This document shows positions 7,371 to 10,645 of a DNA stretch of 64,000 bases, piece after piece. The DNA is from Escherichia phage BEU5. Location: the sequence record OM632664.1. One strand, written 5' to 3'. A program made the translations under genes and the position numbers. Under the pieces are notes generated by a model that had not been told where the DNA came from, ran no database searches, and saw only the letters and a list, made by a program, of their open reading frames with translations. Position 1 is the first letter of the stretch, and every line of letters begins with the position of its first letter.

Positions 7371-9335
7371 ATGCGTCACATTACATTCAACAATGAGGGT
7401 ATCTACCCTATTGCTATCCTTACTACAACGTTACGTAAGGATGATATTGTCAAAGCATACATGGAACCCTGGGATGTAGATAAAGATTCAGTAATGATTC
7501 TTGAACTTCATACAGCCCCAGGGAAAAAGAAAACTCCTGCTAAAGAGATGCAGGAGTTTATTACCCAAGAATTAGTGCCAGCATTCGAAGCAGCACAAAC
7601 TCAGTATATCATCTGTGGTGATTCTGAATATTACAAACAGCTAACCAAACAAGGTAAAGCTGATGCCAATATTGGCTATGTAATGGATTGTGCTTATGGG
7701 AACCAGAAAGTTATTTACGTTCCCAATTACAGACAAATCTTTTATGACCCGGATAAGGTAAAGACTAAGATTGCTTTATCCATGCAGGCTCTGATTGATT
7801 ATGTCTCTGGTTCTTATGTTGAGCCAGGAACTAAGATTATCCACTATGCTGATTATCCATTAACTCCAGAAGCTATATCTAAGTGGTTAGATAAGTTACT
7901 GGAGATGAATGTTCCATTAGCAGTAGATATAGAAACCTTCAGTCTGAAGCATTATGACTGTGGTATAGGCACTATTACATTCTGCTGGAACAAGCATGAA
8001 GGGATAGCATTCCCTGTGGATTATGAACCAATTGAGGGGGCTACTGAAGCTCCTTATGGTAGACAAGTTCACAACATGCTTGTTCGTTCTATGCTCAGAG
8101 ACTTTTTTATTAAGTATCTGAACAGGCAGATGTATCACAATATTGCCTTTGACGTATATGCACTCATTTACCAGTTATTTATGACAGACCTTCTGGATAC
8201 GGAAGGGTTGTTGCATGGCATGAGTATCATGCTAAGAAACTGGGATTGCACTAAGTTAATTACCTATCTGGCTACTAACTCTTGTGCGGGTAATAAGCTA
8301 AGTCTTAAAGACCAGGCTCAGGAATATGCTGGTAACTATGCTCAAGAAGAAATCAATGACATTACCAGAATCCCATTAGCAGAGTTGTTGGAATACAACT
8401 TAGTGGATGGATTATGTACCTGGTATGTCTATGAAAAGCATTGGGATACTCTGGTTAATGACCAACAGTTAGATGTTTATACAAACATCTTCAAACCTGC
8501 ATGTGAAGATATTATTCAAATGCAGTTAACTGGTATGCCTATCAATATGAAGACAGTATTGGAGGTAGAAGAGGCATTAACCCAAGACTATAACAATGCG
8601 TTAAAAACAATTGCTGACAGTAAAGTAATCAAAGATTTCACCCGTCTTCTTAATGAAGAATGGGTAGAAAAACAGAACCAGATTCTGAAGAAGAAACGAG
8701 TGACTTTAGCTGATGCTAAAGAACAGTTTAACCCAAACTCAGGTATTCAATTACAGAAGCTACTTTTTGAGTTTCTGGAGTTACCTGTACTTGGTTTGAC
8801 TGCAAGTAAACTACCTGCTACTGGCAGTGGCATACTCAAGTCTTTGAAGAACCATACCCAAGATACCAGTATTCTGGAAATTCTTGATGCTCTGATTGAT
8901 TACAAAGCTGTAGATAAAATTCTGACAGCATTTATTCCAGCATTAAAAAATGCCAGACAAGGACCAGATGGTTGGCATTATCTCTTTGGTAATCTGAACT
9001 TAGGTGGGACTGTATCAGGCCGCCTATCCAGTAGTGAACCAAACCTACAGAACCTACCTTCTGGTTCCAGATATGCCAAGATGATTAAAAAATGCTTTGA
9101 GGCTCCTCCTGGATGGATATTCTGTGGGCTAGACTTTGCTTCTCTCGAAGACCGTATATCTGCTTTAACAACCAAAGACCCTAACAAGCTGAAGGTGTAC
9201 ATGGGTGTGACTGTTTATACAGTTACTATAGAAGGAGTTGACCATCATATCCGAGATGATGATACAATCGTTTATGATGGTAAAACTTATACCGGTGAGG
9301 AGTTCTATGACGCTTTTACCCGTGGCCTTCTATGA
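7371..9335 (+). CDS. DNA polymerase (family A), N-terminal fragment: 3'-5' exonuclease domain and polymerase motif A
   Basis: Exo I VDIETFS, Exo II YHNIAFDVYAL, Exo III YNLVDGLC, motif A LDFASLEDRI (DYSQIELR-like); start moved to ATG 7371 (GAGG RBS) within track ORF 7284..9335; frame ends at TGA 9333-9335 shortly after motif A. Confidence 0.8.
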   Translation: MRHITFNNEGIYPIAILTTTLRKDDIVKAYMEPWDVDKDSVMILELHTAPGKKKTPAKEMQEFITQELVPAFEAAQTQYIICGDSEYYKQLTKQGKADANIGYVMDCAYGNQKVIYVPNYRQIFYDPDKVKTKIALSMQALIDYVSGSYVEPGTKIIHYADYPLTPEAISKWLDKLLEMNVPLAVDIETFSLKHYDCGIGTITFCWNKHEGIAFPVDYEPIEGATEAPYGRQVHNMLVRSMLRDFFIKYLNRQMYHNIAFDVYALIYQLFMTDLLDTEGLLHGMSIMLRNWDCTKLITYLATNSCAGNKLSLKDQAQEYAGNYAQEEINDITRIPLAELLEYNLVDGLCTWYVYEKHWDTLVNDQQLDVYTNIFKPACEDIIQMQLTGMPINMKTVLEVEEALTQDYNNALKTIADSKVIKDFTRLLNEEWVEKQNQILKKKRVTLADAKEQFNPNSGIQLQKLLFEFLELPVLGLTASKLPATGSGILKSLKNHTQDTSILEILDALIDYKAVDKILTAFIPALKNARQGPDGWHYLFGNLNLGGTVSGRLSSSEPNLQNLPSGSRYAKMIKKCFEAPPGWIFCGLDFASLEDRISALTTKDPNKLKVYMGVTVYTVTIEGVDHHIRDDDTIVYDGKTYTGEEFYDAFTRGLL

Positions 9336-9890
9336 ACAACGGTATAAGATTTCCGATGAAGGTTTCATCTTAAATCTTGCAAACAATCAACCCCTAAAAC
9401 CGACTCTCAATCCTAATGGATACCTTAAGGTTGGATTAGCTAATGGCGATGGTACACATCACCAAGAGCTACTTCATATTCTGGTAGCTAAACACTTCAT
9501 CCCTAATCCTTATGGCTATGAACAGGTAAACCATAAAGACGGTAATAAACTGCATTGTCATAAGGATAATCTGGAATGGTGCTCTGCTACTCAGAATGTT
9601 GAACATGCACTTAAAACAAAGCTACGTCCTGGTTACATGTCTGCTGACGATAAAGAGAAGTATCTCTTTGAGGTGCTGGCAGGTAAGCAAGTTAAAGACA
9701 TTGCTTTTGAAATAGGTAGGCGTCCTGAAACTTTGCATAAGATGCTCAGAACTACTGCTGACCGACTTGGTGTTCGAAATGAGTGGGATGATGTTATGAG
9801 GAGAAATAGAAAAGATGTTGCTTTACGACAGCTTGCCAAAATCAACTCATGACTTCACTGGCAAGAAAATTGACAACGTAGTCAAAGCTG
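9200..9890 (+). mobile_element. homing-endonuclease insertion splitting the DNA polymerase gene between motifs A and B
   Basis: polymerase reading frame is interrupted between motif A (about 9120-9200) and the DIHT-like segment YDGHSLRAYAYFGE (about 9900); interval is occupied by an HNH endonuclease ORF in a different frame. Confidence 0.6.
9307..9852 (+). CDS. HNH homing endonuclease
   Basis: HNH signature NGYLKVGL...HQELLHILVAKHFIPNP...VNHKDGNKLHCHKDNLEW...TQNVEH; ATG 9307 preceded by GAGGAG RBS and overlapping the polymerase-N stop; track ORF 9238 starts at TTG. Confidence 0.75.
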   Translation: MTLLPVAFYEQRYKISDEGFILNLANNQPLKPTLNPNGYLKVGLANGDGTHHQELLHILVAKHFIPNPYGYEQVNHKDGNKLHCHKDNLEWCSATQNVEHALKTKLRPGYMSADDKEKYLFEVLAGKQVKDIAFEIGRRPETLHKMLRTTADRLGVRNEWDDVMRRNRKDVALRQLAKINS

Positions 9891-10645
9891 GGAGTTCATC
9901 AGGTTACGATGGGCATAGTCTTCGTGCATATGCTTACTTCGGTGAGATGATGCCTGACATTGAAGATACGGTAGAGTCTGTTAATTCTATTCAGGAGAAG
10001 TACAAAGCATATCGTCAGGATTCTAAAGCACCTACCTTTGCTCTTACCTATCAGGGCACATACATCACTTTGATGAAGAACTGTGGTTTCTCTGAACAGA
10101 AAGCTCGAATGGTTGAAGAACGTTATCACACACTTTATAAGGTAAGTGATGACTGGGTTCAGGCTAAACTAGACCAAGCTGCAAAAGATGGTTATGTAAC
10201 CGTAGCATTTGGCCTGAGAGTCAGAACCCCCTTACTTCAACAAGTTATCCGTGGAACCAGTAAAACTCCTTATGAAGCTGAAGCTGAAGGACGTACTGCT
10301 GGTAATGCATTAGGCCAAAGTTGGTGTCTTCTGAATAACCGTGCTGGTTCAGAGTTCATGCGTATGGTGCGGAATAGTAAGCATCGTCTTGATATTCGTC
10401 CAAGTACCCATATCCATGATGCTCAGTATTTCCTTATCCGTGATGATATGGATGTTGTGATATATACCAATACTCATTTGGTGAAAGCAGTACAATGGCA
10501 AGACCATCCTGATATTGCTCATCCAGATGTTCATTTGGGTGGGGAACTCTCCTTATTCTACCCAACGTGGGCTAACGAGATTGAGATTCCAAACTACGCT
10601 ACGCCCGAACAAGTCCATGAAGCAATCCAAAAGGCATTTAAATGA
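9815..10645 (+). CDS. DNA polymerase (family A), C-terminal fragment: motifs B and C
   Basis: motif B RQDSKAPTFALTYQG (RxxxKxxxFxxxYG) and motif C-like THIHDAQY; in-frame stop TGA 18 nt upstream of ATG 9815 and GAGGAG 11 nt upstream, so independent translation is plausible. Confidence 0.75.
   Translation: MLLYDSLPKSTHDFTGKKIDNVVKAGSSSGYDGHSLRAYAYFGEMMPDIEDTVESVNSIQEKYKAYRQDSKAPTFALTYQGTYITLMKNCGFSEQKARMVEERYHTLYKVSDDWVQAKLDQAAKDGYVTVAFGLRVRTPLLQQVIRGTSKTPYEAEAEGRTAGNALGQSWCLLNNRAGSEFMRMVRNSKHRLDIRPSTHIHDAQYFLIRDDMDVVIYTNTHLVKAVQWQDHPDIAHPDVHLGGELSLFYPTWANEIEIPNYATPEQVHEAIQKAFK

Follow-up and report, generated by a model that had tools for sequence, protein, structure and literature searches.

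A family A DNA polymerase gene of an N4-like coliphage probably divided into two separately translated parts by an HNH endonuclease cassette

Homing endonuclease genes (HEGs) that split essential genes raise the question of how the host genome survives the break. To our knowledge, an experimentally shown answer, namely tails derived from the mobile element, exists only for NrdA of the Aeromonas phage Aeh1, whose nrdA-a/mobE/nrdA-b system was reportedly described by Friedrich et al. in 2007. Here we analyze a second and much more widespread case, found in a stretch of 64,000 nucleotides from Escherichia phage BEU5 (sequence record OM632664.1; hereafter the window). In this phage the family A DNA polymerase gene is interrupted by a cassette of 701 nucleotides with an HNH endonuclease gene, and the active site of the replicative polymerase would be shared by two subunits.

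In Aeh1 a free-standing HNH-type HEG likewise splits an essential gene of DNA metabolism, the halves of which are translated separately; the short C- and N-terminal tails brought in by the mobE insertion are needed for assembly of the active enzyme, and neither RNA nor protein splicing takes place (Crona et al. 2011, PMC3045599). The locus in the window differs in its target, a family A DNA polymerase that is divided between its motifs A and B, and in that its tails are homologous to one foldable domain, which is uninterrupted in other polymerases and the tail of which also occurs at a second split site. Aeh1 NrdA thus offers the closest experimental precedent for the part that the cassette-encoded tail and head may, by analogy, play here. 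Among N4-like coliphages, a polymerase gene with a HEG insertion is likewise seen in the G7C-like phage 10Gb. The insertion in its g39 gene was described as a 'non-spliceable mobile sequence', as it gave no Rfam match and no spliced product in reverse-transcription PCR, and the cloned gene yielded two polypeptides, confirmed by matrix-assisted laser desorption/ionization, with a Shine-Dalgarno sequence and an ATG preceding the C-fragment (bioRxiv 10.1101/542787). Whether the two polypeptides interact was not known to the authors of that preprint (bioRxiv 10.1101/542787); the split-domain explanation given below is not found in it, and the docking that we propose is a testable answer to their question. 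The non-spliced nature of such an insertion has thus probably been shown already for a relative, and as records of near-identical genomes already annotate the split, that finding is largely known. What appears to be new is the reading of tail and head as parts of one split domain, which other polymerases have in uninterrupted form and which is met again at a second split site.

Two further kinds of systems invite comparison. The 'fractured genes' (Dassa et al. 2009, PMC2677866), in which split inteins stand on either side of a free-standing HEG, have the same three-gene layout, again in phage genes of replication and repair, and loss of the HEG from them leaves a permanently split gene, a situation comparable to that of a metagenomic locus described below. 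The endonucleases I-HmuI, I-HmuII and I-BasI belong to the same family as the one in the window and are found in the same kind of target gene. They are HNH nicking enzymes encoded in group I introns of the family A polymerase genes of SPO1, SP82 and Bastille, where the mRNA is spliced; in contrast, the endonuclease gene of the window is free-standing and an intron core is undetected. In T4-like Aeromonas phages the family B polymerase gp43 is encoded by two cistrons, in one case with a HEG between them, according to a secondary account (Petrov et al. 2006, cited in PMC2677866). Both the polymerase family and the split site differ from those in the window. We know of no tail or head sequences that the split gp43 genes have in common with those described here.

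The divided polymerase gene and its cassette

The phage is an N4-like coliphage, an Enquatrovirus. The unannotated record of Escherichia phage BEU13 matches region 7284-10645 with 100% identity and without any shift in coordinates, and identity to this region reaches 98-99% in the annotated Enquatroviruses VEc25, AlfredRasser (Bas69), PMBT57, Jura, AL25 and SPSP. Outside the cassette the polymerase gene has 98% nucleotide identity to N4 gp39, and the order helicase-gp38-DNA polymerase-gp40-gp41 in the window matches that of phage N4. Motifs A, B and C, matches of Pfam DNA_pol_A (PF00476) to both pieces (89.6 and 35.1 bits) and synteny identify the interrupted gene as a family A DNA polymerase gene, the orthologue of N4 gp39. 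The features of the locus, all on the plus strand (+), are as follows.

7371-9335 (+): coding sequence of the polymerase N-fragment, 654 residues, 74.4 kDa, with 3'-5' exonuclease motifs, thumb, motif A and a cassette-encoded tail of 44 residues; stop TGA at 9333-9335
7917-7946 (+): Exo I-like LAVDIETFSL, by direct reading
8136-8165 (+): Exo II-like HNIAFDVYAL, by direct reading
8394-8420 (+): Exo III-like YNLVDGLCT, by direct reading
8993-9200 (+): upstream flank with cassette-linked single-nucleotide polymorphisms (SNPs), ten relative to N4 being common to the three cassette-bearing Enquatroviruses compared
9015-9059 (+): motif SGRLSSSEPNLQNLP, intact in the window, insertion site of an intron or intein in relatives
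9129-9158 (+): polymerase motif A, LDFASLEDRI, by Pfam and direct reading
9201-9901 (+): cassette (tail, HNH gene and head), 701 nucleotides, by alignment to N4 gp39
9201-9332 (+): tail, 44 codons, MGVTVYTVTIEGVDHHIRDDDTIVYDGKTYTGEEFYDAFTRGLL, net charge about -6
9297-9302 (+): GAGGAG, Shine-Dalgarno sequence of the HNH open reading frame (ORF), within tail codons, with a 4-nucleotide spacer to ATG 9307
9307-9852 (+): coding sequence of the I-HmuI-like HNH homing endonuclease, 181 residues, isoelectric point 9.2
9797-9799 and 9798-9803 (+): TGA and GAGGAG upstream of the C-fragment start, embedded in the HNH codons for ..VMRRN..
9815-10645 (+): coding sequence of the polymerase C-fragment, 276 residues, 31.5 kDa, with a cassette-encoded head of 29 residues, GYDGHS.. 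and motifs B and C
9815-9901 (+): head, 29 codons, MLLYDSLPKSTHDFTGKKIDNVVKAGSSS
9902-9946 (+): GYDGHS segment, equivalent of DIHT, GYDGHSLRAYAYFGE
10013-10057 (+): motif B, RQDSKAPTFALTYQG
10412-10429 (+): motif C, IHDAQY

The N-fragment, the HNH ORF and the C-fragment occupy three different frames. The HNH ORF overlaps the N-fragment by 29 nucleotides and the C-fragment by 38, and both Shine-Dalgarno sequences sit inside the preceding ORF; upstream of ATG 9815, a GAGGAG stands at 11 nucleotides and an in-frame TGA at 18. A first-pass annotation of the sequence had pointed out this in-frame stop and GAGGAG, a polymerase frame with Exo I-III and motif A ending at 9333-9335, an HNH ORF starting at ATG 9307 with its own GAGGAG, and a restart in a third frame at ATG 9815 with the DIHT-like segment and motifs B and C. 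Each of these is present, the Exo motifs by direct reading, as Pfam calls no exonuclease domain in the N-fragment at E<=0.01.

Absence of HNH motifs from a profile search, raised in the same annotation as a reason to doubt it, was not what we found: the middle ORF scores above the Pfam gathering cut-offs for both HNH_3 (26.1 bits, cut-off 24.8) and NUMOD4 (23.8 bits, cut-off 23.4). I-HmuI (PDB 1U3E) matches it over residues 6-103 with an E-value of 8.7e-10, and the protein is laid out as a NUMOD4 module, an intact core VNHKDGNKLH...NLEW...QNVEH and a C-terminal helix-turn-helix-like region. By its core and NUMOD module, the product is on sequence grounds an I-HmuI-like HNH homing endonuclease, with nicking and homing as its predicted activities.

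Alignment with uninterrupted polymerases places the insertion exactly, with 9201-9901 replacing the six bases ACCGAT of N4 gp39, which encode the Thr-Asp of ..KVY-TD-GYDGHS... The flanks of the insertion are 93-100% identical to N4 gp39. The insertion point is the loop at the base of the fingers, between motif A and the GYDGHS segment, and the mobile unit is the whole block of 701 nucleotides, which includes a new C-terminus for the first fragment and a new N-terminus for the second, and is thus more than a HEG. A sequencing or assembly error, the other reservation of the annotation, can be dismissed, because more than 10 near-identical genomes have the arrangement too, and so do, with unchanged ORF boundaries, the diverged lineages of Pollock, SP5M/PD205, Pylas and contigs from IMG/VR. 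Conservation of the stops, starts and GAGGAG sites extends to Pollock, SP5M, Pylas and the IMG/VR loci, and that of the tail sequence and the position of its stop to Enquatrovirus, Gamaleyavirus, Pollockvirus, Pylasvirus and many metagenomic clusters.

The tail evolves as protein-coding sequence in the polymerase frame; its differences at first, second and third codon positions over the non-overlapping codons of 9201-9305 number 0, 3 and 12 against SP5M and 1, 1 and 9 against Pollock. The IMG/VR locus 3300002242_000574 (L024, 3080-3200) has the split at the same place (class 1) with the same tail and head and without the endonuclease gene. There, just 17 nucleotides containing AGGAAAAA separate the stop of the N-fragment from the ATG of the C-fragment, a spacer that leaves no room for an intron; the split thus persists once the endonuclease gene is gone.

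We consider it highly probable that the gene is in pieces, that is, HEG-split and encoding a non-spliced polymerase of two subunits. The anatomy, homology, selection pattern, mobility footprint and absence of an intron signature that underlie this reading are established here. The first-pass annotation had likewise favoured two separately translated fragments, a proposal that gains support from the Rfam negatives, the codon bias, L024, the uninterrupted relatives and 10Gb. Under this reading the three overlapping ORFs would be co-transcribed and each translated from its own Shine-Dalgarno sequence and AUG, with no RNA or protein splicing. The products would be two subunits, one of 74 kDa with exonuclease, thumb and motif A, the other of 31.5 kDa with motifs B and C, and their non-covalent association would form one active site, with motif A on one chain and B and C on the other. 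Co-transcription, docking of tail and head, and the cleavage site are the parts of this scheme that we infer. No terminator-like sites were found within 6800-11200.

As to the gene start, the mechanically called polymerase ORF begins at 7284, 87 nucleotides upstream of ATG 7371, the start as annotated for N4 gp39, and overlaps the end of the gp38 homologue (6836-7363).

Tail and head as possible halves of one domain

Motif A together with the tail served as the query of an exhaustive HMMER search, which recovered 74 cluster representatives, and most of the full-length ones are N-fragments of 620-690 residues ending in the tail. The same search returned an uninterrupted polymerase of 947 residues, P0062. 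This protein and ten relatives (P0075-P0084), of 945-965 residues and 54-74% mutual identity, have a contiguous insert of about 85 residues at exactly the same position, and their genes lie in N4-like order on contigs of up to 80 kb. The tail and head of the window align end to end with this insert, and a gap of 5-7 residues marks the position of the endonuclease gene. An AlphaFold2 model of the P0062 insert is compact, with a mean predicted local distance difference test score of 80.6 and a core near 90, and shows four strands, a helix, a loop at the place of the endonuclease gene and a two-stranded hairpin. The tail is thus the homologue of strands 1-4 and the helix, and the head that of the final beta-hairpin. 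Tails are consistently acidic (-3 to -7), and heads are mostly neutral to basic.

Going by this model, the cassette probably supplies the two halves of a small domain that holds the polymerase pieces together, with the tail (four strands and helix) and the head (beta-hairpin) re-associating to dock the two subunits. Neither the fused tail and head nor the contiguous domain gave more than noise against Pfam; a profile search of the tail-head domain against PDB sequences returned nothing, and Foldseek comparison of the insert domain with PDB and BFVD gave no match at E<0.09.

A second class of split (class 2) ends the N-fragments with a homologous tail about 25 residues farther on, after ..MPDI, with the pattern ..C-Y-x-A-K-V-G...D-T-I-x-Y-x-G-K-x-Y-T-G-x-E-F-Y.. 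followed by the stop. We tentatively suggest, as a possibility that is more doubtful than the split itself, that tail and head are a portable docking domain moving together with the inserted gene, being either a splicing-dead relic of an intein or a new fold. Four observations fit the suggestion: N-fragments with this family of tails end in either of two polymerase loops (KVY| and MPDI..|), the split persists where the endonuclease gene has been lost (L024), a class II ribonucleotide reductase gene takes the place between the halves in one lineage, and another clade retains the domain as a contiguous insert. With such a domain, the element could interrupt an essential gene at more than one site and the phage would still survive. 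The available genomes form an unusually complete comparison set of cassette-free (N4), cassette-bearing (the window phage and others), HEG-less split (L024) and fused-domain (P0062 clade) forms, and if the docking role is true, the pair of 44 and 29 residues would be a compact natural tag for split-protein assembly.

Class-2 tails were recognized in P0037, P0043, P0045, P0047, P0051, P0053, P0055, P0058, P0059 and P0064-P0071; unlike class-1 tails, they almost always start with a conserved Cys (CY/CF..AKVG). In the IMG/VR contigs L012 (3001-7828), L013 and L014, which are 88-90% identical to one another, the N-fragment ends after ..MLDIERAPEGAK with the homologous tail, and in all three an ORF of 664 residues for a class II ribonucleotide reductase (Pfam RNR_Alpha, RNR-II_ins_dom) lies between the halves, with no endonuclease gene. 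The one class-2 head inspected, that of L012, has neither His-Asn nor a +1 nucleophile. In IMG/VR contig 3300028388_004293 (L026, 305-1877), a class-2 tail is followed by an ORF of 344 residues with an HNH-like N-terminal part and, as its C-terminal part, a polymerase palm without motif B; here a deletion has probably fused the endonuclease gene to a truncated C-fragment, and the genome is probably defective.

Splicing, trans-splicing and loss of function as alternatives

The first-pass annotation named as its alternative a group I intron carrying the HNH ORF, in which case the 701 nucleotides would be spliced out to give a single polymerase of about 857 residues without the Thr-Asp of N4. Several points favour such an intron or otherwise weigh against two unspliced polypeptides. 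Excision of 9201-9901 would be in frame, and probably for this reason the GenBank records of AlfredRasser and Pylas annotate the gene as a two-piece join, i.e. with an intron. Related HNH genes lie within true group I introns of N4-like polymerase genes (PhAPEC5/7, nACB1), the homologous I-HmuI is itself intron-encoded, and divergent introns can escape the Rfam group I model. The first 12 codons of the head overlap the HNH ORF, and the HNH frame is apparently the more constrained one there. The experimental evidence for two unspliced polypeptides comes from the relative 10Gb, whose insertion of '~800 bp' may be the same cassette at the same site; a search of the phage collection for the genome of 10Gb gave no match, and the text of the preprint is without an accession. 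Co-transcription is assumed because N4 middle promoters were outside the promoter scan, and the pairing of tail with head is drawn from the model of a contiguous homologue only about 38% identical to them.

Against the intron, a search with permissive filters gave no match to the Rfam model Intron_gpI (RF00028) at E<=10 in 8800-10300, nor was there one in SP5M, Pollock, eight more class-1 loci and one class-2 locus, whereas the same tool detected both true introns used as positive controls, the PhAPEC7 intron in SGRLSASEP|N (38 bits, E 9e-7) and that of Acinetobacter phage nACB1 inside motif B (41 bits). The related loci without a match include nine with the split of the window, eight having the cassette and one having no endonuclease gene. 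Outside the HNH ORF only 106 and 49 nucleotides remain, and these have the protein-type third-position bias in the polymerase frames. An intron with the boundaries 9201-9901, the only ones that fit the N4 exon sequence, would have A as its final base and follow a 5' exon with a terminal C, whereas a group I intron is expected to end in G after an exon U; shifting both boundaries by 2 nucleotides would give U and G but delete conserved residues. Together with the 17-nucleotide spacer of the HEG-less L024, the translation of the same sequence as a domain in the uninterrupted relatives, the lack of observed splicing for 10Gb and an unremarkable folding energy, these observations make the intron highly improbable, and the intron-containing join in GenBank is probably wrong, having no intron signature behind it. 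RNA folding had been considered as an intron signal from a first value of -4.8 and was dropped, since the neighbouring coding windows fold better; the z-score of the cassette is -3.7, compared with -5.4 to -7.1 in adjoining windows of ordinary polymerase coding sequence. That range was obtained against dinucleotide shuffles for coding windows of 741 nucleotides in the helicase-polymerase region (5507-9179 of the window), and windows farther along the genome have values of -1 to -3. Frameshifting and ribosomal bypass were rejected because the gap measures 701 nucleotides and is occupied by an ORF that is complete and conserved.

A degenerate or atypical split intein, with tail (IntN-like) and head (IntC-like) ligating the fragments by protein trans-splicing, would liken the locus to the 'fractured genes', with which it shares its layout. 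The resemblance of fold is weak, and the HEGs of that group are GIY-YIG and Vsr-like as opposed to HNH; tail and head have none of the catalytic residues of inteins, and their combined size is roughly half that of a Hint domain. The first residue of the insert is variable and non-nucleophilic, and at the other end there is no His-Asn and no +1 nucleophile, the residues before GYDGHS being ..SSS, ..NTP or ..TD. Comparison by hhalign with approximate sequences of four inteins gave a probability of 0.4%. The likeness to inteins is thus weak and unproven, Hint ancestry of the domain is a lead, and trans-splicing of the polymerase fragments is unlikely, an active split intein of this kind being very unlikely. 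As the active site is divided between two ORFs, it might also be supposed that the split inactivates the polymerase or that one fragment alone matters, with replication by another polymerase; we found no support for this. N4 requires its own DNA polymerase for replication, and a second polymerase gene was not noticed in the N4-like gene order. Both fragments are under strong purifying selection relative to SP5M, with codon-position differences of 91, 60 and 214 and of 42, 28 and 104; the arrangement is kept in four or more genera and in dozens of clusters formed at 50% identity, and cassette-bearing phages were isolated as viable plaque formers. We therefore regard inactivation as extremely improbable.

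Mobility of the cassette and other interruptions of the gene

The annotation's further proposal of a mobile-element insertion is borne out by presence and absence within a species, cassette-wide identity to a distant phage and SNPs in the flank. N4, OLB145 and 3HA13 are without the cassette and 98% identical elsewhere, which makes it a polymorphism within one species; the Gamaleyaviruses SP5M and PD205 carry it. Pollock, of a different subfamily, is 84-99% identical over 9126-9890 and 55-65% identical in the rest of the polymerase gene, and lateral transfer of the whole cassette, tail and head included, follows from this block of identity. The cassette-linked SNPs relative to N4 number ten in about 210 nucleotides upstream of the junction and only one downstream, and 8993-9200 is a probable co-conversion tract, judging by this sequence pattern. 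Among 50,697 phage records the tail occurs only together with the HNH gene and never without the polymerase split.

In the mechanism that we propose, a free-standing I-HmuI-like HNH gene and its short coding flanks would have been copied into the polymerase gene by homing. In a mixed infection, the endonuclease would nick or cut the cassette-less N4-type allele ..AAGGTGTAT ACCGAT GGTTACGAT.., and repair would then copy the whole block of 701 nucleotides with some of the upstream flank. The likely homing target is the N4-type sequence around TAT|ACCGAT|GGT, and the candidate substrate of the HNH enzyme is the stretch of N4 gp39 containing AAGGTGTATACCGATGGTTACGATGGGCAT. The cassette gives no compositional signal, its G+C content being 0.40 compared with 0.39 and 0.43 in the flanks, and neither Pollock nor SP5M, as judged by eye in the alignment, conserves a 9-bp inverted repeat that surrounds the start of the HNH gene (9286-9294 / 9341-9349).

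Across the family, the N4-like polymerase gene is interrupted at at least five sites, when intron, intein and other fragment starts are counted. In PhAPEC7 and PhAPEC5 (L005 and L008, about 1980-2650) a group I intron of 672 bp with an HNH ORF (Rfam 38 bits) lies in SGRLS(A/S)SEP|NLQN, and a metagenomic relative, P0163, has an intein in the same SGRLS motif (Pfam Intein_splicing). The nACB1 intron (L010, 2956-3806) is inside motif B (..KAPTFA|..), scores 41 and 30.5 bits with Rfam and carries an HNH ORF 31% identical to the endonuclease of the window; the nACB1 record annotates two separate 'DNA polymerase' coding sequences. Split or intron-interrupted polymerase genes seem to be very common in metagenomic N4-like phages. 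With a query of 179 residues from SGRLSS to motif B, the best 120 matches (P0179-P0298) were all of 149-314 residues, an excess of short proteins that may come from the word-based selection of candidates; of the 16 that were read, most begin at M..LQN(I/L)P, at MGLDFASLEDR or with the class-1 head.

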